The notes: generated from the sequence alone by a model not told the origin. A stretch of 64,000 bases of DNA from an uncultured Actinomycetota bacterium (GCA_963773765.1 CAVZCC010000001.1:18901-82900), one strand, 5' to 3'. Positions 1 through 64,000 are shown, numbered from the stretch's first letter. A program made the numbers and translations.

Positions 1-480
1 TCGCCGACGGTGTCCAGCGCCGGGGTGACCTCCGTGGGCAGGCCCCCCTCCCACAGGGCGAGCCGGCGACCGGCGTGCTCGATGATGTGGGTGTTGGCGG
101 GGTTCTTCACCGGCCCGGCGTCGCCGGTGAGCGACCGGTCGGGGAAGGCCATCACGTCGCCCAGTCCGGGGTAGATCGCCGCGCCGTGGGCGACCTCGGC
201 CAGCAGCCCCCGCGACCGGATCCACCGGTTGCGGTAGCGACACCCCGTCGTCGCCGATGGTGACCGCGTGCAGCATCCCGTCCCCGTCCAGGACGCTGTA
301 CCGGCCGATCGGCTCGAACAGGGGGTTCGGTCCGTTGCGCACGAAGGCGCCGCGGAGGCCGTCGGGGATCCTGCCGGAGACCTGGCACCGGTCCAGGTCG
401 AACTCGGCGTCGACCGGGCGGCGGTTGCCGCACAGGTCGGGCTGGCCCGCGTCGTTGGTGACGTGGCCGAGGAGCTGTGC
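1..480 (-). CDS. carotenoid cleavage dioxygenase family (lignostilbene/apocarotenoid dioxygenase-like); N-terminal part only, gene continues past left edge; one frameshift near 250
   Basis: Manual translation of minus strand from ATG at 480 gives MTTAQLLGHV...IPDGLRGAFVRNGPNP...LDGDGMLH, then after a +/-1 shift CRYRNRWIRSRGLLAEV...IYPGLGD...GPVKNPANTHIIEHAGRRLALWEGG. These are hallmark CCD/RPE65 motifs. Shift lies next to a GGGG run. Confidence 0.6.
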
Positions 481-490
481 CGTGGTCATG

Positions 491-1707
491 TCAGGTCCCT
501 TCGACGAATCGGTCGAGCGCGTCGGAGACCGCCAGCCCGGCAGGGAGCCGTTCGGCGCCGATGGCCAGGTCGACGGCCCGGTGGAAGTGGTGGATGAGCC
601 GCTCGTGCCAACCGATCTGGAACGGCCGGGCGCCGTGGGACTCCACCGAGCGCTGGATGGCGGCCATGTTGGACGTGTCCTGGGCCATCACCGTCTCGAA
701 CAGCGTCATCCGCATGGCGTGCTCCTCGGGCATCTCGCCGTCGCCCCAGTCGGGGGCGAACCACTGCAGCTCGAGCTCGGTGCGGCGATGGTCGACCGGC
801 CACATGCACAGGAGCGGGAACGCCCCGGTGTCGAGCGCGGCGACGATGTTGGGGAACCAGCCGAACGAGGTGCTCGTCTCCCGCCACAGCTGGCCGACGC
901 TCGGGTTGTCCGCCTCCGGCGAGGGGTCCATGATCCCGAGCAGCTCGGGCCGGATCCCCACCGAGAGCCGGCTGTGGCCGTTGGGCAACATGGCCACGGT
1001 GACCGTCGAGTCGTCGTACAGCAGTGCGGCGTTGTCGGGGTGGACGGTGCGGATGTGGTACACCTCGAGGAACGCGTCGACCATGGCCTTCCAGTTGGCG
1101 GCGACGTGGTGGGTCTGGGTGCCCACCCTGCGCAGCGACGGCCCGTTCACCTCCACCATCTGCTCCCGGAGCGGGCCGAGGAAGTCCACCAACGGTCCGG
1201 CGTCCGGGTCCTCGTTCACGAACACCCACCCCTCCCACACCTCACACCGCACGGGGACCATGCCCAGTGCGGCCCGTGTCCAGCCCGGCGAAGCTGCGGG
1301 CGTCCGGCACCGCCTTGAGGGAACCGGTGAGGTCGTAGGACCACGAGTGGTACTGGCAGGTCAGGCGCTTGGCCGTCCCGCACGCGTCACGCACCACGGG
1401 CGCCCCGCGGTGGCGGCAGCTGTTGTAGAAGGCGCGGATCCGGTCGTCCTGGCCCCGGACCAGCACGATCGGCGCACCCGACCGCTCGAAGGTGGCGTAC
1501 GAGCCCGGAGCGGCCAGGTCGGACTCGTGGGCGGCCAGGAGCCACGTCCGGCGCCAGACCCTGCTCCTGTTCGAGCGCGTACATGGCTTCATCGCGGTAC
1601 CGGCCGACCGGGATCGGCGGCACGGGGACCGCCTCGGGAGGAGGCGCCGTGCGCAGCCGGTTCTGCTCCAGCTGCTCGCGGATCTCGATTTCCAGGACTG
1701 GGTCCAC
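491..1707 (-). pseudogene. Rieske non-heme iron aromatic ring-hydroxylating oxygenase alpha subunit; reading requires 2 frame changes (near 1545 and near 1250)
   Basis: N-terminus MDPVLEIEIREQLEQ...YRDEAMYALEQEQ (ORF 1387-1707), then Rieske motif WLLAAHESDL...CRHRGAPV...CQYHSWSY in another frame (part of ORF 1242-2483), then catalytic domain MVPVRCEVWEGWVFVNED...(ORF 491-1261). Removing one G from a GGG run at about 1262 restores TGMVPVRCE in frame. Confidence 0.6.
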
Positions 1708-1796
1708 CCGAACCCTCGCTCTCTTGGATCAGACGTGTCCGGTGAGTGTAGTAAACACTGTTCATCGATGTTGCCGGCCGCCCGTGGCCGGCGATC

Positions 1797-3545
1797 GTGA
1801 CAGGGGGATGTTGCACCATGCCGACGCCAGAGTCGTTGACCACCAGCGAGCACCACGACTTCGACCTCGAGCTCGTGTCGGGAACGTGGCCGACCGACAT
1901 CTCGGGAGAGATGCTGTTCTCCGCGCCCAGCCTGAGCGGCAGGCTTCCCTACGGCATCTTCGACTTCGGCTGCGTCATCCGGCTCTCCCTCACCCCGGGC
2001 ACCCACGGCGCTCCCGACGGCCGGTTCGCCTGGCGCACGGGCCGGATCGAGACCCCGAGCAAGCGGATCTTCGACGCGGCACCCGACGCCTTCACGACGA
2101 GCCCGGTCGGCTACACCTCGCCCTTCGGGGCCCCCAACTCGTCGAACACGGCGCCGCTGCCCTGGGGGGACCGGCTGTTCACCACCTGGGATGCCGGGCG
2201 CCCGGTGGAGATCCACCCCGGCACGCTGGAGTACGTGGCCGAGGTCGGCCACATCGACAGCTGGGGCGGGTCGTCGATGTTCGGCGACACGGTCCTGCCG
2301 TTCCTCTTCTCCTCCGCCCACCCGGTGGTCGATCCCGAGCGCCACGGCCTGTGGACCACCAAGCTGGAACCGGTCATGTCGCCGACGTTCGGCATGCGGC
2401 CGTCGGTGGTGTGGTGGGACCGGTCCGGCACGGAGGTGAAGTGGTGGCCGCTGGAGGGGGTCTCCTTCCCCGGCTCCACCCACACCGTCAGCCAGACCCG
2501 CGACTGGGTCATCCTGTGCGACTCCGGCAACTTCAAGGCGGACGCGGACGAGATGTTCGGCGGGGAGCGCACGGTCACCATCGACGCCGACGTGCCGGTG
2601 TGGCTGGTGCGCAAGGACGACCTCTTCGCCCGCCCGTCGGGCACACCCGTCCAGCCCACCTGCTTCCGGGTGTCACCGCCCAACGGCCACTTCTATGCCC
2701 GCTACGACGACAGCGACGGGATCTCGGTGGTCTGGGAGGGCATGGACCTCATGGACCTGGCGCTCTACCTGCGCCCCGACGACGTCGACGTCCACGGCCG
2801 TCCGGTCGACCCGGCGTCGGTCGGGCTCTACAACATGGCGATGGCCCCGGAGACCATCACCGAGCTCCTGTTCGAGCCCGAGACCGGCAAGGTGATCGAA
2901 CGTGGGGCGTGCCGGGAGGACTGGACGGTCAACCTGCAGCTCTCCGCCATGGACTGGAGCCTGGAGGGCATGTCCGCACCCACCCTCCACCACGTGAGCT
3001 ACCAGGGCTGCCGCCCCGGGCGCGTCACGCAACGGGCGGCCCGGCTCTACGAGGACCGCATCGACCTGTCCGCGCTGGCCGAGGAGACGCCGGGGTACCT
3101 CGCCTCCTTCGAGCGGGGCAGCATGGAACTGACGGCCCGCTGGGAGTACCCGGACACCTCCGAGCTGATCACCTCGCCGACCTTCGCCCCCCGCAGCCCG
3201 GCGGCGGGCAACTACGCCGGTGGCGAACCCGGCGGCCACGACGGCTACGTGGTCCAGCCCGTGCTGAGCGACGACGGGTTCCGGGTGGACCTCTTCGACG
3301 CCGCCCACGTCGGGTCGGGGCCGGTCGCGACCCTCCGTGGCACCAACAAGGAGTGCGTGCCGCTGGTGCTGCACTCGGCGTGGATGCCGACCGCCGACGG
3401 ACTGGCGGACGCGGACCGCCTGCGGTTCTCCGACGAGCTCACCCCCGACCGCCTGGCCGGCCTGGACGACCACCAGCGCCGGCTGGTGGCCCGGGTGGCC
3501 GAGGACCTCGATGCCGGGCGTCCTCCTCCAACGGCTCCGGCCTGA
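1797..3545 (+). CDS. distant carotenoid oxygenase (CCD/RPE65)-like family protein, apparently intact (582 aa; alternative start at 1818)
   Basis: Long ORF with balanced composition; SAHPVVDPERHGLW resembles the CCD AHPKVDPxTGEL motif, plus an HT..Q..DWVILCD element similar to the HDFAITE region. Assignment is by motif only. Confidence 0.5.
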   Translation: MTGGCCTMPTPESLTTSEHHDFDLELVSGTWPTDISGEMLFSAPSLSGRLPYGIFDFGCVIRLSLTPGTHGAPDGRFAWRTGRIETPSKRIFDAAPDAFTTSPVGYTSPFGAPNSSNTAPLPWGDRLFTTWDAGRPVEIHPGTLEYVAEVGHIDSWGGSSMFGDTVLPFLFSSAHPVVDPERHGLWTTKLEPVMSPTFGMRPSVVWWDRSGTEVKWWPLEGVSFPGSTHTVSQTRDWVILCDSGNFKADADEMFGGERTVTIDADVPVWLVRKDDLFARPSGTPVQPTCFRVSPPNGHFYARYDDSDGISVVWEGMDLMDLALYLRPDDVDVHGRPVDPASVGLYNMAMAPETITELLFEPETGKVIERGACREDWTVNLQLSAMDWSLEGMSAPTLHHVSYQGCRPGRVTQRAARLYEDRIDLSALAEETPGYLASFERGSMELTARWEYPDTSELITSPTFAPRSPAAGNYAGGEPGGHDGYVVQPVLSDDGFRVDLFDAAHVGSGPVATLRGTNKECVPLVLHSAWMPTADGLADADRLRFSDELTPDRLAGLDDHQRRLVARVAEDLDAGRPPPTAPA

Positions 3546-3644
3546 CGCCCGGGCCGGGGCCACGACCTCCTGATCTCCGTGGCCGCCCGGCGCTACGGTG
3601 CACCTGACGCGCACACGCTGCCCAGCCGACCCCCGGGAGCCACC

Positions 3645-4265: not shown

Positions 4266-4268
4266 CCC

Positions 4269-4318
4269 GGCGGCCCGGGACGTGAGCCGCCGTCAGGCCG
4301 GCCCGGGGCCGGCCAGCT
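4269..4318. terminator. two GC-rich hairpins (cggcggc-N11-gccgccg; ggccggccc/gggccggcc) between convergent DUF1269 and MmyB-like genes
   Basis: Inverted repeats seen directly in sequence; no U-tract. Confidence 0.25.
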
Positions 4319-5137
4319 GGCGGCAGACACCTGCGGTCAGGTCGTCGTAGGGGAACCAGGTCTCGATGCGCAGGTGCTCGACCGCGACGTTCTGCGGCGC
4401 CTGGAACGCCGTGACCATGGTCAGGAAGCGCAGTTCGAGGCCGTCCCGGCGCAGGTGCAGGACCAGGGCCGGGTCCGACGGCACCAGGAGGTCGACGTGG
4501 CGCCAGCCCGGGTCGACGGTCGGCATGGCCAGGAGCTCGTCGAGCAGGTCGCGCATCTCTCCGTCGTCGGGGTCCTCGAGGACCTCGCGCTGGATCCGCC
4601 AGAGCAGCTGGCGGCCGACCTGGTCGAAGTTCGCCAGGAACGGCTGGGCCCCGTCGGGGTCGAACGTCAGGCGGGCGAGGTTCAGGCCGATGACCCCACC
4701 GCCGTCCGGGCCGTCGGGCGGTCCGCGGCGGCACCCCCCAGGATGGTGCCGAGCAGGCCGAGCGCCCCCTGGTTGAGGTCCCGGACCCGGTAGGTCCGGT
4801 CCAGGACGATGAGGGGGAAGGGCTCCTGGTGGACCTTCAGCAGGGCCAGGGCGTCCGTCACCGTGTCCGGCAGGGCGTCGTCGGATTCGTCGTAGACGGG
4901 CTCGTGGCCGGCGGCCCGGAGCATCGCGTTGACCTGCCGCAGGGGGACGCCGAGCGACGTGGACAGCTGCAGCACCATCTCCGGGCTCGGACGGGAGCGG
5001 CCCGTCTCCAGGAAGCTCACGTGCCGGGCGGAGACGTCTGCGGCCAACGCGAGGTCCAGCTGGCTCAACCCGCGCTGGCGGCGCCAGTGCCGGAGCAGCG
5101 CCGGGAACAGCCCGGCGCGGTGGTCGGGATCGGGCAC
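4293..5137 (-). CDS. MmyB-like helix-turn-helix (XRE) transcriptional regulator; frameshift near 4690
   Basis: ORF 4682-5137 carries the HTH (LSQLDLALAADVSARHVSFLETGRSRPS). C-terminal MmyB-like domain (LRFLTMVTAFQAPQNVAVEHLRIETWFPYDD) continues in ORF 4293-5177 in another frame. Confidence 0.55.
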
Positions 5138-5310
5138 CCGGGCCTCCTGGATACGTGGGGTGGACGGCGTCCGTCACCCACGACGCTAAGCGTTCGTGCG
5201 GCCGGCGGCACTTACCTCCCCAGTTCGTTGCGGTGCCCGCGATCCGGGCGCAAGGTGGCCCCCAACCCCGGGCGGACCCGCGCCGGGGACCACCACTCCC
5301 GGAGGTTCCG

Positions 5311-6193: not shown

Positions 6194-6282
6194 AGGGCGT
6201 CGGCCGTCCCGTCGACGGCGAGGGTACGGTGGTCCGTCACCGATGTGCGCGGCCGGACCTGTGCCGGCAGGGGGGAATCGTC

Positions 6283-6645: not shown

Positions 6646-6717
6646 GCCGCAGGCCGACGTGCCCGCGACGGACCGGTCACCCGGAGCGGCCACCTGCGGC
6701 GTCGACGCCAGGACGCC

Positions 6718-7139
6718 GTGACCCGCAGTCCGAGGGCCGCAGCCGCTGCCTGCCCGTGCGGGTCCGGGGAGCCGTACTCGCGGTGCTGTCGGCCCTTCCA
6801 CACGGGGGCCGCCGACCCCGGCACCGCCGAGCAGCTGATGCGGCGCGCTACAGCGCCTTCGCCAAGCGGCTTCCCGGGTACCTGCTGGCCACCTGGCACC
6901 CGGACGCCCGGCCGGCGGACCTGCACCTGGCCCCGTCCCAACGCTGGGTCGGGCTCCGCATCATCTCGACCGTCGACGGCGGACCCGCCGACCGCACCGG
7001 CGCCGTGGAGTTCGAGGCCCGCGTGGAATCGGGCGCCGGGCCGGGGCGGCTGCACGAAGTGAGCCGCTTCGAGCGTGTCGACGGCCGTTGGACGTACCGA
7101 TCCGGCCGGATCGTGGAGGACGGTGCGTCGTCGGGCTGA
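6718..7139 (+). CDS. YchJ/UPF0225 SEC-C-motif protein; frameshift near 6850
   Basis: CPCGSGEPYSRCCRPFHTG...TAEQLMR in ORF 6718-7062, then RYSAFAKRLPGYLLATWHPDARP...VDGRWTYRSGRI in ORF 6519-7139. Confidence 0.5.
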
Positions 7140-7143
7140 CAGC

Positions 7144-7686: not shown

Positions 7687-7710
7687 CGCGGGGCGTGGTG
7701 GGCACGTGGC

Positions 7711-9509
7711 TCAGGTGGTTCCGTCGGTCCGCACGACCCGCGTGCCGGGGAAGCCGGGCTCGCCGCGCCAGCGTTCCAGGTACCCGGCGTAGTCCATCAG
7801 GCTGCCGGTGTAGACCAGGTTGCGGGCCGCCTTGGGGTCGTCCCCCTGTTCGGCGTTGTAGTAGCCGGGCGTGCAGTTCCGTGAGTAGTCGGCGATCTGG
7901 CCGGCCACGCCCAACAGGATGCCGAGCCATTCCTCCTCCGCCTCCGGGGTGGCCTCGATGGTGGCGACGCCCTGCTCCTCGCAGGTGGCGATCAACCACG
8001 CCACGTGCTTGGCCGACTCCGACAGGAAGTGCAGGAAGTTCGTGCCGAAGCCGGCCTGCACGAGGCTGATCATCATCAGGTTGGGGAACTCGGCGGAGAG
8101 GATGCCGTGCAGCGTGTGGGCGCCGTCGTGCCACCGCTCGCTCATGGCCACGCCACCCCGTCCCACGGGGTCGAAGCCGAGCCGGCGGTCCAGGTCGGTG
8201 GTGACCTCGAACCCGGAGGCGAAGACGAGGACGTCGACCGGGTACTCGATGCCGTTGGCCACCACCCCCGTGGCGGTGATCCGCTCGACACCCCGGCCGT
8301 CGGTGTCGACCAGGTGCACGTTCGGGCGGTTGAACGACGGCAGGTACTCGTCGTGGAAGCACACCCGCTTGCAGTGCTTGCCGTACCAGGGCTTGAGGAG
8401 GGCCGCGGTGTCCGGGTCCTCGACGAGGTCGTCCACCCGCTGTCGCAGGGCCTCCATGGTCAGGAAGTCGGACCGCTCCAGCTCGGCCGCCGCGTCGGCC
8501 GAGTCGGCGGCGGTCTGGGTGTCCTCCCACATGACCTCGGTCCAACCGTCGCCGACGAGGTCCCGTTCCGGCTTGCGGCCGGTGACGGCCTGGGTGAAGT
8601 TGCGGACCCGCTCCTGGTGCCACCCGGCCGGCAGGCTGCGGAACCAGGCCTCGTCGGTGGGGCCGTTGTCGCGCCGGCCGACCGCGGACGGCGTGCGCTG
8701 GAAGACGTAGAGCTCCTCCGCGGTCTCCGCCACGCGGGGCACGACCTGCACCGCGGTGGCACCGGTGCCGATGATCCCGACCCGCTTTCCCCGCAACTGC
8801 TCCAAGGGCTCCTGCGGCCCGCCGCCGGTGGACCCGTAGTCCCATCGGCTGGTGTGGAACGCCCGGCCCCCGTAGTCCTCGATGCCCGGGATGCCCGGGA
8901 GCTTGGCCTTGTGCAGGATGCCGCCGGCGGTGACCAGGTACGTGGCCGACAACTCGTCGTGCCGCGCGTGGTGGTCACCCGCCACCGCTGTTGGTCCTCC
9001 TGCCACTCCGCGGCGGCCACCTCGGTCTGGAACAGGGCGTGGGGGTACAGGTCGTAGTGCCGCCCGAGCAGTTGGCAGTAGGCGAAGATCTCCGCTGCGC
9101 CCGCGTACTTCTCCGTGGGCATGTAGCCCGTCTCCTCCAGCAGCGGGAGGTAGGTGTACGACTCGACGTCGCACATGCAGCCCGGGTAGCGGTTCCAGTA
9201 CCAGGTGCCACCGAAGTCGCCGGCCTTCTCCACGATCCGGATGCCGTGGACGCCACGGGCCTTCAGGTTGATGGCGGCGAGCATGCCGGCGAACCCGCCG
9301 CCGACGATGACCACCTGGGTCTCCTCCACGACCGGGTCCCGGGTGAAGCCGGGTTCGACGTACGGGTCCCGGTCGAATGCCGCGTACCGGCCGGCCAGCT
9401 CGGTGTACTGGGCCAGGCCGTCCGGGCGGAGTCGCTTCTCCCGCTCCTGGCGGTACCGGTCCTGTGCCGCCGCCATGGACGGTGACGGGCCGGTGTCGTG
9501 CTGGTTCAT
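7711..9509 (-). CDS. Baeyer-Villiger (class B flavin) monooxygenase, paralog 1; single frameshift near 8955
   Basis: N-terminus MNQHDTGP...[17 protein letters not shown]...[23 protein letters not shown]...[10 protein letters not shown] (ORF 8460-9911 frame), then [13 protein letters not shown]...[10 protein letters not shown]...[10 protein letters not shown]...[11 protein letters not shown] (ORF 7711-9552 frame). Confidence 0.65.
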
Positions 9510-9614
9510 CGGTGGTCCCTCGACGTGGCGCATCCGAGCGCTGGGCAGGCACAAGTTAGGCCGCCCGTCCGCCGGGGTGGTTGCGTAGCGGACGAATGAC
9601 GCCGTCCCTACGAT

Positions 9615-11491
<1,877 letters not shown>

Positions 11492-11495
<4 letters not shown>

Positions 11496-12588: not shown

Positions 12589-14124
12589 TCAGCTCATGGC
12601 GGCGATGGGCTGCTTGGGCGGGAAGCGGCCGAAGGTGGAGAAGTGGTCCCGGATCCCGCTCGTGAAGCTGTCGATGTAGGCGAGCTTGCGGATCATGTAG
12701 CTGTGCTGCTCCTTGGGGTCGAGGTACAGGTTGTACAGCCGCCCGTGGGAGTACTTCTGCGTCACCCCGGTGAACCCGCCCAGGTTCAGGCAGTCGCGGT
12801 CGTCGTCGGAGGTCGAGGCGACCATGAACTTCCACTCGCCCACCCGCAACGCGGAGAACACGTTCGTGAGCCAGTAGTAGAGGTACTTGCGGTTCGACTC
12901 GCCGTCGGGGTCCAGCAGGAACGACGTCTGGTCGACGCCGTCGATGTAGCGGTCCTCGGGGATGGACCCCGCCGCGCCGGCCAGCGTTGAGGATCGTGTT
13001 GAACAGGTCCATCTGGGAGAACAGCCCGTCCGAGGCCCGGTCCGCGGTGATCATCCCGGGCCAGGTGAGGATGCCGGGCACGCGTTGGCCCCCTTCCCAG
13101 GTGGACCCCTTGGCGCTGCGGAACGGGGAGTAGGCGGCGTCGGGCCAGGTCTCCATCTCCGGTCCGTTGTCCGACGACAGGAAGACCAGGGTGTCGTCCA
13201 TCTGGCCGGTCGCCTCCAGCTCGGCCACCAGGCGCCCGACGATGTCGTCGAGCTCGATGATGGTGTCCTTGTAGGGATGCTTGGCGGGCGACGTCCCGAG
13301 GTAGCGCTCGTGCGGGTAGTTGTCGAAGTGCGCACCGCGGGTGCAGTGGTAGAGCAGCCAGGGCCGGCGGTCGGCCGGCGCCGGCGCGGCCATCCGGCGG
13401 ATGAAGTCCAGGGAGTACTCCGCCCAGCGGTCGTCCAGGAGTGACAGCACCGGGATGGTGACCTCCTCGACCTGTTCGGTCTCCCCGCCCCGGGTGGCGT
13501 GCACGAAGCACTTGTTGAACGGGAGGTTCTCCACCCACCGGGTCCGTTCCTCGCTGTAGACGATCTCCGGGAAGAAGTACGGGTCCCGCCACTCGGTGTA
13601 CATGTCCGACACCGACAGGAACCCGTAGAAGTCGTCGAAGCCGACGTGCTGGGGCTGGGACTCGACGTTCTCGCCCGATGTGCCACTTGCCCACGGCCTG
13701 GGTGATGTAGCCGGCGGCGGAGAGCAGCTGGGCCAGGGTGACCTCACCGTCCAGGCCGCCCGGCTGGCCGTACATGGGGGGACGGAGCAGCCCGTGGCGC
13801 ATGGGGAGGCGACCGGTCATCAGCGACGCCCGTGACGGCGTGCAGGAGGGCTCCGAGTAGCACGACGTGAGCAGGAGGCCGCGCCGGGCCAGCCGGTCGA
13901 TGTTGGGCGTCGGGGCGCCGACCGCGACGCCGCCGCCGTAGCAGCCGAAGTCCCCCCACCCCACGTCGTCGAAGAGGATGATCAGCACGTTGGGCCGCTT
14001 CCCGCCGGCGCCGTAGGCGTCCAGGGCAGCAGCGGCCCGCTCCTCCTGGCCGGCCAGGACGAAGTGCGGTTCCAGGCTCCGCCGGGCCTGGACCGTCTCC
14101 GCCACCACTGGATCATGTGCCATG
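12589..14124 (-). pseudogene. arylsulfatase (formylglycine-type, CxPxR); 2 frame changes (near 13680 and near 12870)
   Basis: MAHDPVV...[19 protein letters not shown]...[19 protein letters not shown]...AVGKWHIG (ORF 12786-14975 frame), then [19 protein letters not shown]...[10 protein letters not shown]...[13 protein letters not shown] (ORF 12188-13747 frame), then C-terminus ...VGEWKFMV... (ORF 12589-12861). Confidence 0.65.
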
Positions 14125-14218
14125 ACTGGACCCCCTTGCGGGGCGACTCTAGGACGCCGGAACCGGTGGCGAGGCCCGTCCCCGGCACGCACACCGGGCC
14201 CTTGGCCCATCCGCTCGG

Positions 14219-15078: not shown

Positions 15079-16552
15079 TCAGGCCGTCGCCGGCGGGGCG
15101 GGCCGGCGACGTCGCATCCGGTAGCGCCACGCCGGGAAGACCCTGGTCCGCAGCCAGTAGCGGGCGCCGCTGTCGGGCAGCTGGGTGACCACCTTGCCCG
15201 ACGGGGCCCGGAAGTAGTTGTTGCACCCGGCCACCCAGACCGTGTCGGCCAGGTCCGCCTGGAGACGCCGGTTGTAGCGGTCCATCACCCCCCGGCGCAC
15301 GTCGACCGCGCCGATCCCGAGTCGGTGCATGGCCCGCAGGGCGCCCATCACGAAGTGGGCCTGGGCCTCGTGGAAGAAGATGATCGAGTTCACGCCGTTG
15401 GTGTTGGGGCCGTAGAGGAGGAACAGGTTCGGGTACCCCGCCACACTCAGCCCCAGGTAGGCCTCGGCGCCGTCGGCCCAGTCGTCGTGCAGGCGGCGGC
15501 CGCCCTCGCCGATGACCTCGATGGTGCTGAGGTACTCGTCGGCCCGGAACCCGGTGCCGTAGATGATCGTGTCCACCTCGTGGAGCTCGCCGTCGGCGGT
15601 GCGCACCCCGGTCCCGGTGATCTCCGTGATCGGTGCGGTGACCAGGCGCACGTCGGGCCGGGTCAGGGTGGGCAGCCAGGTGCGGGAGGTGAGCGGCCGC
15701 TTGCACCCCACCGGGTGCTCCGGCGTGAGCGCGGCACGCAGGTCCGGGTCCGCCACCTTCCGCTCCAGGTAGGAGCGGGCCAGCCCGGTCAACATCCGGG
15801 TCTGGTCGGAGTCGAGCCCGAAGTCGGCCCGCTGGAACGTGAGCCAGATCTGGAAACGGTGCCAACGCGCCGCCAGGGGCACCCGGTCGAACCGGCGTTG
15901 CTGCTCCCGGGTGTAGGGCTGCTCGAAGCGCGGGGTGACCCACACCGGGCTGCGCTGGAACACCGTCAGGTGCTCCACCTCGTCCGCGATGGCGGGCACG
16001 TACTGGATGGCGCTCGCTCCGGTGCCGATGGAGGCGACCCGCTCACCCGCCAGCGCCTTGGTGTGGTCCCAGCGCGGCGGAATGGAACGCCCGGCCCCGG
16101 AAGCGGTCGGCTCCGGGGATGTCGGGGATGTTCGGCACGTTGAGCATCCCGAGGCCACTGACCACCACGTCGGCGGTGAACCGGTCGCCGGATGCCGCGG
16201 TCAGGTGCCAGAGCTGGTTCCCACCGTCCCACCGGGCCTCGGTGATGGCGGTGCCGGTGCGGACGTGTGGTCGGACGCCGTACTGGTCCGTGCATCGCTC
16301 CAGGTAGGCCAGGATCTCGGGCTGGGAGGCGTAGGTCCGGCTCCACCACGGGTTGAGCTCGAAGGAGTACGAGTAGAGGTGCGACGGGACGTCGCAGGCG
16401 GCGCCGGGGTAGGTGTTGTCCCGCCAGGTGCCCCCCACGCCGTCGGACTTCTCGTAGATCGTGAAGTCGTAGCCGGCCCGCTTGAGCCGGATGCCCATGG
16501 CGATGCCGCCGGCGCCGGCGCCCAGGACCGCCACGGTGGGCCGGTGGCTCAC
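15079..16552 (-). CDS. flavin-containing monooxygenase (FMO, class B); one frameshift near 16075
   Basis: GTG start [23 protein letters not shown]...[25 protein letters not shown]...GRAFHSA (ORF 16043-17074 frame), then [24 protein letters not shown]... (ORF 15079-16158 frame). Junction reads ttccattccgccgcgctgggac; deleting one base restores FHSARWDH. Confidence 0.65.
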
Positions 16553-30895: not shown

Positions 30896-30988
30896 GGCGG
30901 GCGCCGTACAGTCGACCATGGTGACCTCCTCCGGAGGTCTCCATGGTCGTGACCTCCTCCGGAGGTCTTGAGACGGAAGGGCTGTTCG

Positions 30989-34592: not shown

Positions 34593-34651
34593 CGGGCACA
34601 GCTTGGCATCCCGGCGTTCTGCGGCGGAATCAGCCCCCGGGGCCGGGCGCA

Positions 34652-40833: not shown

Positions 40834-42255
40834 TCAGGGATCCACGTGCTCCAGGCGGAGCGTGGTGTCCACCAGCAGGCGGAACCGGCCCCGGCCGGCC
40901 TTCTGCAGGCGGATGGGGGCTTCGCGCTCGTCGAGCCGGCGCCGGAGCAGGATCAGGCGGCTCTCCAGGTTGTCCCGGTACTCGGGGAGCTCCAGGGACG
41001 GGTCGAGCCGGACCTCCCTGTTGGTGAAGTCCACCCGGCCCTCCGCGTCGAACTGGCAGAGGAGGGACCAGAGGATCCGTCCGGCGACGCCCTTGATCAG
41101 GTAGTCGCCGTCCAGGAACGTGCTGCCGTCGGCGGGGAAGAAGCGGACCTGCGTCACCGATCCGGGAGCGGCCAGCGAGAGCGGCCGGGCGGGCGACGCG
41201 GCCTCTCGGGGCAGCGGCGCGGCCTCGCTCGGCCTCCACGGCGGCCCCGACGAGCGCAGCCACCACCCCCAGCGTCGTTTCGTCACGGTGACTGAACGCC
41301 ACCGGCCGGTCGCGTTCTGCGAACAACACCCCGACCACCTGCCCGAACGCGACCGCCGGCACCGCCACCTGGCTCCCGGCATCGGCCAGGCCCGGCAGGG
41401 CGATCACGCCGGTGACCTCCACGCCGGCATCGGCGGACCGGCGCTGCACGGTGCGGGAGTACTTGTCCATCTGGCGGATGTTGCCGACCCGCACGACGGT
41501 GCCCCGCTCCGCGGCCAGGCCGATCACCCCCATCCCCACCTCGACCTCGGACCCGATCCCCCCGTCCGGGTAGCCGTGGGCCGCCACGGTGTACAGGCTG
41601 GTGCCGGACTCGTCGGCGAGGAGCAGCAGGCTGTGCTCGTAGCCGAGGAGCTCCGCCAGCCCGTCGACGGCCAGCCCCACGAGTTGGTCCAGGTCGGCGC
41701 TCCGGGCCAGTCGGCCCGCCAGCTCGGCCACGGCGGCGACGCGGTCGGTGCCCGGGCGGTCGGTGCCCGGGCGGACGGCGCCGGGGGGGACGTCGGCGCC
41801 AGCGGTACCGGGCGGGTTCGCGGCGGCGCCACCACCCACCACACGTTCCAGGGACACGACGCGGTAGATGTCGGCGGCGCGCAGCCGGAAGACGTCCTCC
41901 ATACCGGACAACGCGGCCAGGGTGTCCACGTCGGTCCTCAGGCGCTCGAAGACCGGGCCGCGTCGTTCCGTGCGCTCGTAGGCCAGGGCCAGCCGGTACT
42001 CGTCGTAGGTGACGGGGTCGATCAGGAGCAGGTTGGCCCGCGGGTTCTCCGCCAGGTTCCGGGCGGTCTTGGAGAAGAACTGGTTGGACAGCGCCACCCG
42101 GTGGTCGTCCACCATGCGCACGCGCGACAGGTAGGTGACGTTGGGCGTCCCCCCGGCGGAGGACGTGGCGACCACCGCCGGCACCGCCCCCTCGAAGCAC
42201 TGGTGGATGTCCGCCAGCCGGAGGCCCGAGGGGTCCGGCCCGTCGTCGGTCACGC
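40834..42255 (-). CDS. one-component regulator: PNPOx-like (FMN/F420 split-barrel) domain + GAF domain + OmpR/SARP-type winged-helix DNA-binding domain; frame change near 41190; GTG start
   Basis: From GTG at about 42255: LRLADIHQCFEGAVPAVVATSSAGGTPNVTYLSRVRMVDDHRVALSNQFF (PNPOx-like), ...LLLADESGTSLYTVAAHGYPDGGIGSEVEVGMGVIGLAAERGTVVRVGNIRQ (GAF-like) (ORF 40787-42625 frame), then FFPADGSTFLDGDYLIKGVAGRILWSLLCQFDAEGRVDFTNREVRLD...SRLILLRRRLDE...IRLQKAGRGRFRLLV (trans_reg_C-like) in ORF 40834-41382 frame. Confidence 0.5.
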
Positions 42256-42618
42256 CGAGCCTCCGTCCGGCCCCACCGGCGCACCCGCTCCCGGGCCCGG
42301 CGTCTGGTCGAAGAGCTCCTCCATCTGGACCGTCACGGCCGTGAGGCCGGCCGGCACCAGCTTCTCCAGGAGGTCCACGGGGAACCCGTCGACCTCGTGG
42401 ATGGCGTCGAACATGGCCCGGCGGTAGCGGCCGGACACCCTGGCGTCCTCCGCCGTGGCCGGCTCCGTCCGGAGCACCCGGCCCTTGGCCTGCACCGACT
42501 GCAGGGTCCTGATGTCGGTCGCCGTGCAGGCGATGGGAGCTCCCGGCAGCACGGCACCGTCCAGGACGGGGTCCCCGGCGGGGACCAGGAGGCGGATGCG
42601 CCCGTCGTCGGAGGACAT
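42250..42618 (-). CDS. small PNPOx-like (pyridoxamine 5-prime-phosphate oxidase family) protein
   Basis: MSSDDGRIRLLVPAGDPVLDGAVLPGAPIACTATDIRTLQSVQAKGRVLRTEPATAEDARVSGRY...; its TGA overlaps the GTG of the downstream regulator (GTGA). Confidence 0.55.
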   Translation of the reverse strand: MSSDDGRIRLLVPAGDPVLDGAVLPGAPIACTATDIRTLQSVQAKGRVLRTEPATAEDARVSGRYRRAMFDAIHEVDGFPVDLLEKLVPAGLTAVTVQMEELFDQTPGPGAGAPVGPDGGSA

Positions 42619-43636: not shown

Positions 43637-43733
43637 GGGCCCCGGGGGTGCGCCCGGGCCCGGGGCGGGGCACGGGTGCACCCGGCACGCGCCGCTACGG
43701 TGGCCACAGGACCGACCGGGGGTGCAGGCGACC

Positions 43734-45686
43734 GTGAGCGAGGCCAGCGGACAGGCGGGCGTGGAGCCCATCACGGATGACGACGCGACGATCGCGGCCG
43801 CCCTGGCGGACGTGAGCATCCCGACGCTCCTCCTGTCGTTGGTCCACATGACCGGTGACATCGCCATCCTGGACGAGCTGCCGCGGCCGGCGGGGATCTA
43901 CCTCAACGAGGTGCAGGGCTTCATGTCCCCGGAGGACCAGGCCGCCGTGCGGGCCCGGGCGCTGGAGGTCATCACCGCCTACCGCGACGGCGGCTGCGTG
44001 CTCCCGCCCCCGCCCGACGCCGGACGACGGTCCACCGCGATGATGAACGTGCTGGTGGCCGACGAGGTCCCCGACGAGTACGTGCCGCTGCTCCTCGAGG
44101 AGCTGGAGCTCGACGGCGTGGACGCCCGGGACGGCGACTGGGGCGCCGCCATCCCCGACGACGTGCGGGCCGGCGCCCACGTGGTGGTCATCGGCGGCGG
44201 GATGTCCGGGATCCTGGCCGGCATCCGCCTGCAGGCCGCGGGTCTCCCGTTCACCATCGTCGAGAAGAACCCGGGCGTGGGCGGCACCTGGTACGAGAAC
44301 CGCTACCCCGGCTGCCGGGTGGACGTGGGCAACCACTTCTACTGCTACTCGTTCGCGCCCAACGACGAGTGGACCGAGTTCTTCGCCCGCCAGCCCGAGC
44401 TGCAGGCCTACTTCGAACAGGTGCGTCACCGACTTCGGCGTCGGCGACCACCTCCGGTGCTCGCACGGAGGTCGTCGCCGCCCGCTGGGACGACGACCGT
44501 GCCCGTTGGACGGTGACCGTCCGCGGCGCCGACGGCGTCCAGCGAGGACCTGGAGGCCAACGCGGTCATCAGCGCGGTGGGCCAGCTGAACCGGCCCAGG
44601 CTGCCCGACATCGCCGGCCTGGAGGACTTCGGTGGCCCGGTCATGCACTCGGCCCGGTGGGTGGAGGGCACGGACCTGCGCGGGCAAGCGGGTGGCGGTG
44701 ATCGGCACCGGCGCCAGCGCCTTCCAGATCGTGCCCACCATCGCGGAGCGAGGTCGGCCACCTGACGGTGTTCCAGCGGTCCGCGCCGTGGATGTTCCCC
44801 AACCCGCACTACCACGACAAGGTGGCACCGGGCGTGCGCTGGGCGCTTCGCCACCTGCCGTACTACGGCCGGTGGTACCGGTTCCTGATCTTCTGGCCGG
44901 CGTGCGACGGCGGGCTGCCGGCCATGCGGGTCGACCCCGACTGGCCCCACCAGGACCGGGCCGTCAGCGAGGTGAACGACGCGGCCGCGGGAGGTCTTCA
45001 CCCAGTGGATGGCCGACCAGGTCGGCGACGACGCCGAGCTCCTGGCCAAGGTGGTGCCCGACTACGTGTGCCTGGGCAAGCGCACCCTGCAGGACAACGG
45101 CAGCTGGCTGGGTGCCCTCACCCGCGACGACGTGGACCTCGTCACCGAACCGATCGAACGCATCGGGTCCGACCGGATCGTGTGCACCGACGGGACCGAG
45201 GTCCCGGTGGACGTGATCATCTGCGCCACCGGGTTCCACGCCAACCGCTACCTGTGGCCGATGGAGATCACCGGCCGGGGAGGCGTGGTGCTGTCCGAGC
45301 AGTGGGGCGACCGGCCCACGGCGCTGCTGGGGATCACGGTGCCGAACTTCCCCAACCTGTTCTGCCTCTACGGGCCGGGGACCAACCTGGCCAGCGGGGG
45401 CAGCCTGATCTTCCACTCCGAGTGCCAGGTCCGGTACGTGATGGGGTGCCTGGCCCGCGTGCTCGGGGGCGGGCACCGCGCCATCGAGGTCACCGCCGAG
45501 GCGCACGACGCCTACAACGAGCGCCTGCAGGCCGAGTTGGCCACCATGGTGTGGTCGCACCCGTCCATCCGGAACAGCTGGTACCGCAACGACGACGGGG
45601 ACATCTACATCCTGTCGCCGTGGCGCCTGGTGGACTACTGGCGCTGGACCCGGGCGCCGGAGCCGGACGACTTCATCCTCACGTGA
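43734..45686 (+). pseudogene. class B flavin monooxygenase paralog 3 (FMO/BVMO-like with N-terminal extension), 5 or more frame changes
   Basis: GTG-start VSEASGQAG...HVVVIGGGMSGILAGIRL...GGTWYENRYPGCRVDVGNHFYCYSF...YFEQV (43536 frame); TEVVAARWDDDRARWTVTVRGADG (44369 frame); GQLNRPRLPDIAGLEDFGGPVMHSARW (44577 frame); GKRVAVIGTGASAFQIVPTIAER (44632 frame); FQRSAPWMFPNPHYHDKVAPGVRW (44768 frame); ADQVGDDAELLAKVVPDYVCLGKR...NFPNLFCLYGPGTN (45009 frame). Confidence 0.6.
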
Positions 45687-53819: not shown

Positions 53820-54944
53820 TCAGGCCATGGGGCCGGCCGGGAGCGGCCCGCGGTCGTGGGCGTCGCCGTCGTCCCCGGGGTCGAGGTCGGGGTCGCCCGC
53901 CCCGGCTCCGCCGCCCTCGTCGGCCGACAGCCGGTTGACGGTGGCCAGGCGGGTCCGGCCGATGCCCTTGAGGTCGAACACCCGTCGCACCCGGTGGGTC
54001 TCGAGGTCCGCCCGGTCCTCCATCGCCAGCAGGTACTCCCGGGGGATGACGACCTTGCCCCGACGGGCCACGTCGGTCATGCGGCTGGCCAGGTTGACGG
54101 TCGGGCCGAACACGTCGCCACCCACGGTGATGGTCGGGCCGTACGCCACGCCGCAGTGCAGCTGCACCGGCTCCGGCCGGTCGGCAAGGCGGTCCAGCAG
54201 GTCCAGGCCGATGTCCACCCCGTCCTCCAGGGTGTCGGCCAGGAACATGACCTCGTCGCCGATCAGCTTCACCACGCGGCCACCGCGGGCGGACACGACG
54301 TCGAAGGCCGCCGTCTCGAAGGCGTCGATGACCTCGGCCAGCTCCGGTGGCGTGAGCTCCCGGGTCAGCTTGGAGAAGCCCGAGATGTCGGCGAACCCCA
54401 CCGCGCACTCGGACAGGTCCTCCTCCGCCCCCAACCAGCGGCTGAGCGCGGCCACCAGGTGCCGCCGCCACACGTAGACCAGGGAGTCCTCCAGGAGCGC
54501 CAGCAGCGAGGTGTCCGGGTCGCGCTCCATGGCCTGGATGCGGTCCCACGGTGAGAGGTCCGGCTCGCCGGCCGGCATGGAGAGGAGGATGTCGTCCAGC
54601 ACGGCGGCCTGGGCCTCGGCGATGCGGGAGAAGGACGCACCCAGCAACCGGGCCAGGCGGAGCACGGCGTCGTCGTCCAGCAGGTCCGCCCCCACCATGG
54701 ACACCAGGCGCCGTGCCATCTGCACGTCGGTGTCGCCGAAGGCCACCACGTCCTCCGGGACCTCGGCGAAGCCCATGGCCCGCCACCACCGGACCATCTC
54801 CTCGTGGGTGACCCCGACACGCTCCTCCATGTCCCTGCGGCGGTACACCGGGGGATCCAGGCCCACCATGCGGGACAGACCCGCCACCCGTTCGGGGTCC
54901 ACCGGCCGGCGTGTCTCCCCGGACGGCACCTCGCCGATCGTCAC
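53820..54944 (-). CDS. class III adenylate/guanylate cyclase with N-terminal regulatory domain
   Basis: ...AVGFADISGFSKL...LIGDEVMFL...; GTG start proposed; the upstream part of ORF 53820-56438 is antisense to the GH5 gene. Confidence 0.65.
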   Translation of the reverse strand: MTIGEVPSGETRRPVDPERVAGLSRMVGLDPPVYRRRDMEERVGVTHEEMVRWWRAMGFAEVPEDVVAFGDTDVQMARRLVSMVGADLLDDDAVLRLARLLGASFSRIAEAQAAVLDDILLSMPAGEPDLSPWDRIQAMERDPDTSLLALLEDSLVYVWRRHLVAALSRWLGAEEDLSECAVGFADISGFSKLTRELTPPELAEVIDAFETAAFDVVSARGGRVVKLIGDEVMFLADTLEDGVDIGLDLLDRLADRPEPVQLHCGVAYGPTITVGGDVFGPTVNLASRMTDVARRGKVVIPREYLLAMEDRADLETHRVRRVFDLKGIGRTRLATVNRLSADEGGGAGAGDPDLDPGDDGDAHDRGPLPAGPMA

Positions 54945-54973
54945 GGTCAGGCCCGCCGGACGGTGACCGTGAC
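54940..54973. other. perfect 10-bp inverted repeat gtcacggtca-N14-tgaccgtgac spanning the GH5 stop codon and the cyclase start
   Basis: Seen directly in sequence. Confidence 0.6.
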
Positions 54974-57851: not shown

Positions 57852-58776
57852 ATGAGGTGGTGGTGCTCGGCGGTGGCGGAGAAGTGGACGTGGGCCCCGC
57901 GTCCGTACCTGGGCGTGTGGATCCTGTGCCTCGGGCTGGGCGCGGCGTACTGGCGGAGCTGGACCCACCACCGGGACCAGTGGGTCCCGGACGAGCGGGA
58001 CCGCCGCCGCCCGCTGTGGTTCGGGCTCGGCCTCCTGGCGCTCTGGGTCGCCTCCGACTGGCCCGTCGGTGCCCTGGGTGGGTCCTACCTGGCCTCGGTC
58101 CACATGCTGCAGTACATGATCTACACGCTCGCCGCGGCACCGCTGCTCATGCTCGGCACGCCGGAATGGCTCGGTCGACGCATCCTGGCCGCCACCTGGC
58201 TGCGCACCGTCTACCTGGCCATCTCCAAGCCGACTCATCGCCGCCCTCATCAGCAACTTCGTGCTGATCGCCACCCACGCCCCGGTCACGGTGGACCTGT
58301 TGCGCTCCAGCCAGTTGGGGTCGTTCCTCCTGGACATGATCTGGCTGGTGGCCGGCTTCATCCTGTGGACCCCGATCATCAGCCCGCTGCCGGAGGCCCA
58401 GGCCCGCTCCGCGCCGATCAAGCTGGTGTACCTGTTCGCAGCGGCCGCCCTCATGCCCATGATCCCCGGCGGGTTCCTCACCTTCTCGCCGCTGCCCCTG
58501 TACGCCACCTACGAGCTGGCACCCCGGGTCGGCATCGAGGCACTCGACGACCAGCAGATGGCAGGCGTGGCCATGAAGGTCGGCAACCTCCCGGTGATCT
58601 GGACCGTCATGGCGGTGATCTGGTTCCGCTGGTACCGCCGTGAGGCGGGCGACCAGCGGCCCACGGTGGTGCGCGACCCGGTCACCGGCGCGCCGTTGCG
58701 GGCACCACGGGCAGCGCGTCCAGCCCCCGGAACGGACCGCGCTGGTGCCAGCGCAGGGGTTCCGCCGTCCGGCTGA
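57852..58776 (+). CDS. ctaG: cytochrome c oxidase caa3-type assembly factor CtaG-like membrane protein; frameshift near 58235
   Basis: RPYLGVWILCLGLGAAYW...MLQYMIYTLAAAPLLMLGTPEWL...AISKP (57852 frame), then LIAALISNFVLIATHAPV...LWTPIISPLPEAQ... (58261 frame). Confidence 0.5.
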
Positions 58777-61215: not shown

Positions 61216-61229
61216 GGGCGGGCCGGGGG

Positions 61230-62060: not shown

Positions 62061-62139
62061 GGGACGCAGTGTGGCAGGGTGCGGTCCGGGCACCAAGGAC
62101 CGTCGGACGGGCGGTCCCGACCACGGGGAGGGTCCCGGC

Positions 62140-62799
62140 ATGGGACGTACCACTGGAGGACTGACCGGGTTGGCGGGGCTGGGGCTGGCGGCCGCGGCCG
62201 CGGCCGAGGTGGTGTGGCGCCGTGGCCGGGACTGGGGCGCGACCGAGGAGGAGCGCACGGCCCCGTTCCCCGGCGACGAACTGGTGGCCGGGCCGGCGTC
62301 GTCGTTGACCCGGGCCGTCACGGTCGAGGCACCGGCGGAGGAGGTCTGGCGCTGGTTGGTGCAGATCGGCCAGGGTCGGGGTGGTTGGTACAGCTATGAC
62401 GCGCTGGAGAACCTCCTGGGACTGGACATCCACTCCACCGACGAGGTCCGGCCCGAGTGGCAGGACCTGGCGGTGGGTGACCGGGTCGTGATGATCCGCC
62501 CGGGCTGGATGGGCCTCGCGGACGGGTTCGGCCTGCCGGTGGCCGTCCTGGACCCGCCCCGGGCCCTGGTCCTCCGCGAGGACCCCGACGAGACACCGTG
62601 GGACGCGGTGTGGTCGTTCCTGGTGGTCCCCGTCGGGCCGGGCCGCTGCCGGCTCGTCTCGCGCAGCCGGGCCCACACCGCTCCCGGCATCGGCGCCGCG
62701 CTCGGGACGCGCCGCGGCCCGTCCCATGGACCTGGTGACCCTGTTCATGACCCGCCGCATGCTGCTGGGCATCCGCGACCGGGCCGAGGCCGCCTTCTG
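62140..62799 (+). CDS. SRPBCC family protein; probable frameshift near 62715
   Basis: MGRTTGG...WRWLVQIGQGRGGWYSYDALENL... then C-terminus PMDLVTLFMTRRMLLGIRDRAEAAF stop in another frame ending at 62799. Confidence 0.45.
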
Positions 62800-62934
62800 A
62801 CGGGGACGGTGGACGGCCTGCCGACGTCGCCGGTGGTGTGACGCACGGCGACCCCGGCGGCAGGCGTGGCGGCGCCGCCGGTCGGGTACCGTGCCCGTCA
62901 TGAGCGTCGCAAGGATCCAGGTGGAGGTGCGGGG

Positions 62935-64000
62935 ATGACGATCGTGGAGCCACCGGCGGACTCCTCGGTGACCGACTGGGCCACCGATTTCGACCACACC
63001 GACGAGGCCTACGCCGCGGCCGCCCCGGAGATCTGGGACGACCTCCGTGAGCGCTGCCCCGTGGCGCACTCGGATCGCTTCGGCGGGACCTGGCTGCCCA
63101 CCCGGCATGACGACGTGTCCGCCATCGCCCATGACACCGAGCACTTCAGCTCCCACGGCGTGATCGTGAACGACTTCAAGCCCGGCATCCCGGCCCCCGT
63201 CGGCTTCGCCCCGCCCATCACGTCGGACCCCCCGTTCCACCAGGTGGCACGCGGCATCCTGCTCCCTGCCTTCTCCCCCAAGGCCATCAACCCGCTGGAG
63301 GCGCCGACCCGGGAGTTCTGCGCCGGGCTCATGGACGACATCGTGGACTCCGGCCGCACCGACGTGGACGCCGCGACCGACTACGCCCAGCACATCCCCG
63401 TCCGCGTCATCGCCCACATGCTGGGCGTGCCGCAGTCCGACGGCGACCGGTTCCGGGAGTTCATCCACCGCATCCTCGAGAAGCCGGGCCAGACGGGCCC
63501 GACCAACGAGGAGGACACGATGGTCCACTACCTCGACGGCATCATCGCCGACCACCGGGAGCACCCCAAGGACGACCTGATCGGCTACCTGCTGGACCAG
63601 GAGATCGACGGCGAGCCGCTGACCGAGGACCACGTCATGGGCACCGTCGCCCTGGCCCTCATCGCCGGGATCGACACCACCTGGTCCGCCATCGGCGCCA
63701 GCCTCTGGCACCTGGCCCAGCACCCCGGTGACCGCCGACGCCTGCGGGACGAGCCCGAGCTCATGACGTTCGCGGTGGAGGAGTTCCTGCGCGCCTACGC
63801 CCCGGTCACCATGGCCCGCATCGTGGCCAAGGACACCGAGGTGCGGGGGTGCCCGATGTCGGAGGGGGACTGGGTGCTGCTGCCGTTCCCGGCCGCCAAC
63901 CGTGACCCCGAGTTCTTCGACGACGCCGACGAGTTCGTCATCGACCGGCGCAAGAACCGCCATGCCGCGTTCGGCCTGGGCATCCACCGCTGCCTGGGCT
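62935..64000 (+). CDS. cytochrome P450, second copy, C-terminal end beyond window
   Basis: Manual translation from ATG 62935: MTIVEPPADSS...ALIAGIDTT...EEFLRAYAP...AAFGLGIHRCLG (heme-binding loop) reaching the window end; not in ORF track because no stop. Confidence 0.85.
   Translation, partial: MTIVEPPADSSVTDWATDFDHTDEAYAAAAPEIWDDLRERCPVAHSDRFGGTWLPTRHDDVSAIAHDTEHFSSHGVIVNDFKPGIPAPVGFAPPITSDPPFHQVARGILLPAFSPKAINPLEAPTREFCAGLMDDIVDSGRTDVDAATDYAQHIPVRVIAHMLGVPQSDGDRFREFIHRILEKPGQTGPTNEEDTMVHYLDGIIADHREHPKDDLIGYLLDQEIDGEPLTEDHVMGTVALALIAGIDTTWSAIGASLWHLAQHPGDRRRLRDEPELMTFAVEEFLRAYAPVTMARIVAKDTEVRGCPMSEGDWVLLPFPAANRDPEFFDDADEFVIDRRKNRHAAFGLGIHRCLG

Follow-up and report, generated by a model that had tools for sequence, protein, structure and literature searches.

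Frame changes in a 64-kb stretch of an uncultured Actinomycetota genome very probably result from strain mixing in long-read metagenome assembly

Introduction

The genome of Trypanosoma brucei Lister 427 has shown that the collapsing of alleles during assembly introduces insertion/deletion (INDEL) errors and, with them, apparent frameshifts (PMC8445201). In the mosaic consensus of its two haplotypes the INDEL errors occur where nearby variants shift the alignment of reads, and the open reading frames (ORFs) were full-length once the haplotypes had been separated (PMC8445201). Frameshift errors have also been measured, by the IDEEL test, in metagenome-assembled genomes (MAGs) from long Nanopore reads, and can be fixed with proovframe or short-read polishing (PMC9262707; bioRxiv 10.1101/2021.08.23.457338). 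In addition, Flye collapses strains that are 97.6–98.65% identical into consensus contigs (PMC8302730), and Nanopore-only Flye assembly with one round of Medaka has been applied to genomes from soils and sediments, in which strain-level diversity is high (PMC12313526). In this study, we analyzed a stretch of 64,000 nucleotides from an uncultured Actinomycetota bacterium (GCA_963773765.1, CAVZCC010000001.1:18901–82900; hereafter "the window", meaning the whole stretch), in which an original prediction, made from the sequence alone, had noticed that many genes need frame changes to be read, and had proposed either real gene decay or consensus indels of the assembly. Our analyses indicate that these frame changes are very probably consensus errors of a long-read metagenome assembly, caused by the mixing of strains, and not gene decay.

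Like the T. brucei collapse, the window has extra bases at sites where strains differ, with both alleles standing in tandem, a likeness drawn from sequence comparison only. The collapse in T. brucei is of homologous chromosomes, whereas that in the window would be of bacterial strains co-occurring in a metagenome and, unlike in T. brucei, the errors in the window are nearly all single-base insertions that create CpG in a genome of 72% G+C. The frameshifts of Nanopore MAGs resemble those described here in that genes within contiguous contigs are broken up by small consensus indels, leaving truncated products like the public proteins of the present contig. However, Nanopore consensus errors are classically changes in homopolymer length, whereas the insertions in the window avoid homopolymers and follow strain-level diversity. 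The identity range in which metaFlye collapses strains is the same as that of the window's relatives (96.6–98.8%), although the study in question (PMC8302730) centers on lost strain resolution, has indels only as a side effect and does not describe the tandem-allele pattern. The likeness to reductive evolution in Mycobacterium leprae and M. ulcerans is superficial only, in that a large fraction of genes is interrupted; decay in those species involves deletions, nonsense mutations, insertion sequences, relaxed selection and lesions shared by descent, none of which characterizes the window.

Frame changes in the window

The window has 69–75% G+C. Because its G+C content is so high, ORF lists were uninformative (260 ORFs of at least 100 aa were listed), and coding frames were found from the G+C content of third codon positions (GC3 frame analysis). 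Junctions between frames were then checked by blastx against ORFs of relatives and by frameshift-aware protein-to-DNA alignment to intact homologs, with further checks by Pfam, by DNA alignment to close relatives and by BLASTP of a homolog against both frames. Loose gap penalties gave many spurious compensating gaps in the alignments. Apparent frameshifts in the CrtO gene, the DUF1269 gene and the N-terminus of the first Baeyer-Villiger monooxygenase (BVMO-1) were discarded, as the stop-to-stop reference ORFs spanned upstream noncoding sequence.

At least 15 genes had been predicted to need frame changes, and 14 of the 15 that were named were borne out. Together with a candidate in an adenylate cyclase gene, ~15 of ~60 genes are interrupted, so that the earlier estimate of about a quarter was right. 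The interrupted genes, with coordinates counted from the first base of the window, are:

1..488, minus strand: CCD-1, RPE65-type carotenoid-cleavage dioxygenase (CCD), N-terminal part, running off the window; extra C at 238
494..1728, minus strand: Rieske oxygenase; extra T at 1277 and extra T at 1562 (DNA and frameshift-aware alignments)
4296..5173, minus strand: MmyB-like regulator; frame change of net +2 or -1 at ~4683–4687
6670..7136, plus strand: YchJ-like protein (SEC-C motif and NTF2-like domain); one base missing at ~6845
7711..9527, minus strand: BVMO-1; +2 (GT) at 8959–8960 (alignment to L002)
9662..11492, plus strand: BVMO-2, hotspot 1; ~20–22 single-base insertions from 9686 to 11277
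12592..14126, minus strand: sulfatase; extra bases at 12985 and 13677
15082..16552, minus strand: FMO; extra C (plus strand) at 16075 (frameshift-aware alignment and alignment to L091)
23793..26055, minus strand: molybdopterin oxidoreductase-1 (Mo-oxidoreductase-1); one extra base in CGCG at ~24477–24480 (blastx, GC3 and frameshift-aware alignment)
33379..34650, minus strand: YVTN beta-propeller protein with N-terminal membrane anchor; one base missing at ~34440, in a length-variable linker (three-way alignment)
40834..42261, minus strand: PNPOx-GAF regulator; extra A (plus strand) at 41213
43722..45683, plus strand: FMO-3, hotspot 2; nine inserted bases, at 44018, 44028, 44039, 44423, 44463, 44543, 44681, 44749 and 44986
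53823..54950, minus strand: adenylate cyclase; possible +1 close to the 3' end, at 53882 (seen only in the pairwise comparison with L088)
57852..58773, plus strand: CtaG (Caa3_CtaG); extra G at 58232 (blastx, frameshift-aware alignment and alignment to L088)
62161..62797, plus strand: SRPBCC-like protein; +1 between ~62680 and 62707

The named gene that fell away encodes the alpha/beta hydrolase (5324–6190), which is not broken: one ORF covers the full Abhydrolase_6 profile (1–217 of 217). For the adenylate cyclase candidate, the direction of the change was inferred from the general bias towards insertion.

Evidence for the individual junctions came from several sources. The sequence L002, a short-read MEGAHIT contig that is 92% identical to the window in nucleotides and in which CCD-1, Rieske and BVMO-1 are intact, aligns at the CCD-1 junction as TAG[C]GAC, and the frameshift-aware alignment places a +1 at 237, with 94% amino acid identity and no stops. 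The repaired Rieske protein is 98% identical to that of the intact 404-aa gene of L002, again without stops. Fragments of one homolog match the MmyB-like gene in frames -1 and -3 by blastx, in agreement with the frameshift-aware alignment and with a GC3 phase change of 2. In the YchJ-like gene, which has a Pfam YchJ_M-like match, CPCGSG...AEQLMR is followed by RYSAF...WHP in the next frame, and CGG-CG-CGC stands opposite CGGAGCCGC of the intact gene of L003. The BVMO-2 insertions were read from alignments to L084 (86% nucleotide identity), L003, L001 and L091; the multiple frame changes that had been predicted in this gene are present, whereas their estimated number (8–12) was too low. Repaired BVMO-2 is full length, lacks stops and is 87% identical to P0121 and P0122, and the similarity of BVMO-1 to its own relatives is just as high. 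The sulfatase aligns to its L009 homolog with 75% identity and no stops by frameshift-aware alignment.

For the FMO gene, the earlier description of an extra base in a gccgcgc context at 16075 was correct. The Mo-oxidoreductase-1 lesion is put at 24525 by the frameshift-aware alignment and at ~24478 by the sequence and GC3 analysis, and 27 JGI metagenome relatives, the best of which is 74% identical, have no break at this junction (137 of 137 codons). The anchor and propeller of the YVTN protein are in different frames. In the PNPOx-GAF regulator the Pfam GAF match stops at profile position 106 of 136, whereas the related proteins P0242 and P0243 have an intact length of 467 aa. Six of the nine inserted bases in FMO-3 change the frame (six +1 events and no stops in the frameshift-aware alignment), whereas three that lie within ~21 nt sum to one codon and cancel. 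Residues 39–187 of P0361 match one frame of the SRPBCC-like gene and residues 195–221 (MDPVTLVMTRRMLLGIRDRAE) the next, with 81% identity.

Small changes were also found outside the genes listed above:

3518..3632: small insertions (+2, +1, +1, +1, +1) in the 3' tail of the CCD-like gene and the spacer before the DUF1269 gene (alignment to L002)
30918, 38852 and 40751: intergenic single-base differences of +1, -1 and +1, respectively (three-way alignment)

The cluster at 3518..3632 could in part be real divergence, given that L002 is only 92% identical. The three intergenic differences demonstrate that the lesions are not limited to genes.

Genes described earlier as clean were indeed so. The CCD-like, Mo-oxidoreductase-2, flotillin and permease genes are uninterrupted by comparison with homologs or sister assemblies, and the MFS gene is one uninterrupted ORF, as seen in the GC3 and ORF analysis alone. 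Two of these genes served as controls:

27688..29988, minus strand: Mo-oxidoreductase-2; 760 aa align to the L067 homolog with no net frame change
30968..33013, plus strand: flotillin; uninterrupted in the window

Direction, sequence context and selection

The 54 events are distributed as non-uniformly as had been claimed (dispersion index of 8.6 in 2-kb bins, chi-square p = 4e-39) and have a marked direction. Insertions of 1–2 bases account for ~50 and deletions for ~4 (binomial p = 4e-11), the latter being those at ~6845 (YchJ), ~34440 (YVTN) and 38852 (intergenic), and one of two bases at 9516, upstream of BVMO-1. Most inserted bases are C or G. The inserted base is the same as a neighboring base in 26% of cases in the window and 16% in the sister contig L086, vs. 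50% expected, and it creates a new CpG in 41 and 65% of cases, respectively, vs. 17% expected; GpC is enriched too. Homopolymer slippage was rejected because inserted bases equal their neighbor less often than chance, and the bases at 238 and 1277, which had been remarked on as lying next to homopolymers, are not homopolymer-length changes. A local effect of G+C content was also rejected, as the hotspots have 0.71–0.72 G+C vs. 0.74–0.75 in clean regions.

The coding sequences are otherwise intact. No in-frame stops were found in the repaired genes, no insertion sequences or large deletions were seen inside the affected genes, and substitutions in the repaired genes are still concentrated at third codon positions. 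The ratio of nonsynonymous to synonymous substitution rates (dN/dS) is 0.077 for Rieske, with its two lesions, and 0.28 for BVMO-2, with ~20; the corresponding values are 0.20–0.22 in BVMO-1 and 0.087 in the CCD-like gene, which is uninterrupted.

These findings bear on two biological explanations of the frame changes. One is that they are true mutations in pseudogenes, by reductive decay of the type in M. leprae and M. ulcerans. The interruption of around a quarter of the genes would fit with this, as would seven lesions that the window has in common with L091, the pattern expected of inherited mutations. However, bacterial pseudogene decay is biased towards deletions, the opposite of the ~50 insertions vs. 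~4 deletions observed here, and the lack of nonsense codons after repair, the dN/dS values of 0.08–0.28 and the lack of insertion sequences or large deletions all argue against it, as does BVMO-2, whose repaired protein is still 87% identical to intact relatives despite ~20 lesions. Thus, neither the mixed lesion spectrum nor the relaxed selection of pseudogenes was observed, and the prediction's alternative of real gene decay is extremely unlikely, all the more so as most lesions are private to the window, as described below.

The other biological explanation is programmed ribosomal frameshifting, or other recoding, by which the shifts are read through in vivo. Nearly all shifts are +1 and the genes are under purifying selection, as recoding would have it. 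Against this, no sequence motif shared by the lesion sites was seen in the alignments to relatives, and there is no common slippery or conserved site in the orthologs, which are continuous at the same positions, including in sister assemblies of 96–99% identity. In addition, there are up to 20 shifts in one gene, and the same kind of extra base occurs in intergenic DNA. We therefore give recoding a negligible probability.

Sister assemblies carry lesions of their own

Collinear loci from close relatives were reached by a search with the PNPOx-GAF regulator, which found proteins 96–97% identical on large ENA contigs, and then by exact-protein look-ups. The sister contigs are:

L086 (ERZ25039545): 96.6% identical to the window, covering 30.9–52.2 kb
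L087 and L088 (ERZ25039459): 98.7–98.8% identical, covering 30.8–62.2 kb
L091 (ERZ25039596): 96.0–98.6% identical, covering 10.4–33.7 kb

Their "contig_N" names and sizes of 122–472 kb suggest that they are Flye long-read assemblies. The Flye-style names likewise suggest Nanopore or PacBio sequencing with metaFlye as the pipeline behind the frame changes. An apparent deletion in the window at 45205 was rejected, as the insertion is in L087 instead, in which the gene call breaks at this position.

Most of the window's lesions are missing from these relatives. Those at 41213, 16075, 13677 and 58232, eight in FMO-3 and 6–9 in BVMO-2 are absent from L086, L087, L088 or L091, with the absence at 13677 being from L091 and the three-way alignment showing the lesion at 41213 in the window only. 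The PNPOx-GAF regulator (467 aa), CtaG (307 aa, in L088), FMO (490 aa, in L091) and YVTN protein (405 aa, in L086) are each intact in at least one sister assembly. Conversely, the sisters have private lesions in genes that are intact in the window. There are 62 one-base and eight two-base insertions vs. five small deletions private to L086 in 21 kb, with 15 of the insertions in flotillin, which is split into three gene calls, and 18 in the gene at 34915–36063. L091 has eight private insertions in Mo-oxidoreductase-2, likewise intact in the window, and it has 12 insertions in the sulfatase.

Most lesions are thus private, one-directional (~50 vs. ~4 in the window, 70 vs. 5 in L086) and different between assemblies, which points to errors, since real pseudogene lesions would be common to close relatives. 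The seven lesions in common with L091 are the exceptions. Of the causes named in the original prediction, consensus indels of the assembly are supported. Its suggestions of homopolymers and of paralogs are not, as collapse of paralogs within the genome was rejected because the BVMO copies, at 65–70% DNA identity, are too distant.

With ~70 insertions in 21 kb, L086 is among the sister public assemblies that are worse than the window. The 505-aa "sulfatase" call of L091 (16571–18088) is mostly a wrong-frame read-through over 12 insertions, with only a faint Pfam match. FMO-3 (43.7–45.7 kb) is covered by the window, L086 and L087, and each of the three has small indels in it, at differing positions.

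Extra bases at strain-variable sites

Comparison of the window with L087 revealed 13 single extra bases, eight of which are at sites where L086 and L087 differ and have both alleles side by side. All eight are in FMO-3 (p = 1.4e-3 against the local and 1.7e-7 against the global background), where they make up eight of the nine inserted bases. Tandem alleles were also seen at single sites in BVMO-2, where GCC and GCG appear as GCCG at 10758, and GGC and GGG as GGCG at 11138. At 10869 both the window and L091 resemble a merge of the forms GTG-CAC and TGC-CAC found in relatives. Errors at haplotype-variable sites with both alleles present are thus found where two sister strains cover the window.

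The small indels are also concentrated where strains diverge. They fall in 500-bp bins that are dense in single-nucleotide polymorphisms (SNPs), with Spearman rho of 0.74 and 0.61 for blocks B and A of L091, respectively, and 0.57 for L086. The window and L091 differ by <0.5% over FMO, an SDR gene and a glyoxalase gene, whereas in BVMO-2 and the sulfatase the proportion of synonymous differences (pS) is 0.17–0.25. The ratio of nonsynonymous to synonymous differences (pN/pS) is 0.16 in BVMO-2 and 0.17 in the sulfatase, and therefore the substitutions in these divergent blocks are real, selected variation, with both genes having been under selection after the copies diverged. FMO-3 is among the most divergent parts of 30.8–52.2 kb, L086 and L087 differing by 10.2% there and by 3.0% overall.

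The divergence is mosaic in 10.4–19.8 kb against L091 and in 30.8–52.2 kb against L086, with blocks of 5–10% (BVMO-2, the sulfatase, 17–19 kb, flotillin, 34.5–36 kb and FMO-3) alternating with stretches of <0.5%. This pattern suggests allele exchange by recombination within the population.

The explanation that we favor is that several strains of the species, 96–99% identical, co-occur and differ mainly in mosaic blocks reaching 5–10% divergence. Assembly and polishing oblivious to strains would pool the reads of all of them. At sites that differ, typically a C or G at the wobble position or neighboring variants that shift the alignment of reads, the consensus would retain both alleles side by side, thereby gaining one base and breaking the frame. 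Regions that are nearly identical between strains would stay clean, hence the patchy distribution. This presupposes that the source sample yielded reads from at least two strains, and we infer that the isolated lesions and those common to L091 share the same mechanism.

Several observations weigh against this explanation. Tandem alleles were shown statistically for FMO-3 only, the sole hotspot under two sister strains, and elsewhere as single sites. The correlation of indels with SNP density is weak for L087 (rho 0.16). The window-private insertions at 238, 1277, 1562, 41213, 10711, 11165 and 11277 match no polymorphism in the sampled relatives; the same is true of that at 58232 in CtaG, and several of the unmatched private insertions are A or T. 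Finally, seven lesions are common to the window and L091: that at ~24478 in Mo-oxidoreductase-1, that at 12985 in the sulfatase, and five in BVMO-2.

A rival explanation is ordinary long-read noise, that is, residual random errors in low-coverage or poorly polished stretches with no mixing of strains. The strong insertion bias and the patchiness would fit locally unpolished noisy reads, several insertions, such as those at 41213, 1277 and 1562, match no known polymorphism, and L086 and L091 are much worse overall than L087, as quality that depends on coverage would give. Noise is unlikely to account for the lesions as a whole, as the errors co-localize with strain-divergent blocks whose substitutions show purifying selection and are hence real variation. 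In addition, the eight of 13 extra bases that reproduce two strain alleles in tandem, the avoidance of homopolymers and preference for creating CpG or GpC, which is no random-base pattern, and the proneness of FMO-3 to errors in all three assemblies covering it are not what noise would produce. Nevertheless, the isolated insertions at 238, 1277, 1562, 41213 and 58232 may be ordinary consensus noise.

Lesions common to the window and L091

If the frame changes are artifacts of strain mixing, then the seven lesions common to the window and L091 would have had to form a second time at identical positions. Recurrence of a single artifact is one possibility, provided that each of the two samples contains the same two alleles together. 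The alternative is a mixed origin, in which most lesions are artifacts and these seven are real frameshift alleles of a sub-lineage. In its favor, the extra base is at the same codon in the window and L091 even though the flanks differ at several sites, and real shared indels do exist, as shown by the intergenic +1 at 30918, which is in the window and L091 and absent from L086 and L087. Against it, the window/L091 pN/pS values in BVMO-2 and the sulfatase misfit an inactivation before the copies split, and the common sites carry the signature of the private errors, namely insertion of C or G creating CpG. The site at 10869 looks like an allele merge in both sequences, and the five common lesions in BVMO-2 sum to +5, by which the frame is not restored. 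For these reasons we regard a mixed origin as improbable.

That these seven +1 lesions are real alleles in a natural Acidimicrobiia population is itself very doubtful. If it were true, the genes would have been inactivated very recently in parallel, or would be expressed via some tolerance of +1 frameshifts, as the genes with common lesions still show purifying selection.

Consequences for the deposited sequence

Two products of interrupted genes are public, P0001 and P0241, each being on a single contig of 1,711,747 bp in NCBI and ENA, and therefore the frame changes are part of the deposited sequence. P0001, the product of BVMO-1 (100% identical), is truncated at 424 aa, compared to ~595 aa for its relatives, whereas P0241, the product of the PNPOx-GAF gene, has 488 aa with a wrong-frame C-terminus. 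At 72% G+C wrong frames stay open, with the result that gene callers yield long false proteins, and the truncated or wrong-frame proteins made public from this contig and its sister assemblies include these two and the 505-aa "sulfatase" of L091.

The frame changes are not a biological feature of the organism and are no evidence of gene loss in it. The oxygenases, sulfatase, CtaG and regulators with interrupted frames are best regarded as intact. A reference-free sign of a mixed-strain long-read MAG is the combination of three features: single-base changes that are insertions only, inserted bases that create CpG and avoid homopolymers, and a clustered distribution over strain-variable blocks. 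Genomes with such a sign need strain phasing before polishing, and the gene calls here are to be repaired by phasing and re-polishing.

Relatives and gene content of the window

The nearest named relatives of the window's proteins are MAGs of Acidimicrobiia, Acidimicrobiales and Microthrixaceae and, judging from these matches, the window's genome is Acidimicrobiia-like and derived from a metagenome. There are no tRNA genes in the window. The closest relatives in the genome collection, from Acidimicrobiia, Microthrixaceae and assorted others, have protein identities of at most 73% and served as protein references only. The sole match in the plasmid collection was a distant Nonomuraea BVMO with no gene order in common, which provided the first intact reference.

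A gene cluster at 1–12160 is conserved with L002 and has two RPE65-type carotenoid-cleavage dioxygenases, the Rieske oxygenase, and DUF1269 and CrtO-like genes. It also has the two divergently oriented Baeyer-Villiger monooxygenases; a CxxCxxCC protein comes after the second of these, an arrangement also present in L084 and L085. Between the DUF1269 and CrtO genes is a block at 4520–7079 (MmyB-like regulator, alpha/beta hydrolase, cupin and YchJ) that is absent from the otherwise collinear L002.

Length differences were noted in three genes. The PNPOx/GAF linker has an in-frame 15-nt insertion at 41774 that is present in the window but not in L086 or L087. Flotillin varies in length, in frame, within its C-terminal region (32998–33034), where CGGTTC-like units form a short tandem repeat and the window has +21 and +9 nt compared to L091. 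At 27793–27813, Mo-oxidoreductase-2 has a +1 and a -1 that are 20 nt apart and cancel, relative to the L067 homolog (73% amino acid identity), which may reflect a pair of hidden errors or just divergence at this spot.

A segment of ~3 kb at 19776–22751 that includes an MFS-like transporter gene (19647–21212) and an ORF at 21402–22706 is absent from L091 and from the JGI contig L093, which was taken as short-read from its name and size. Both contigs join 19775 directly to 22752, and the segment looks like a real strain-specific insertion or deletion.

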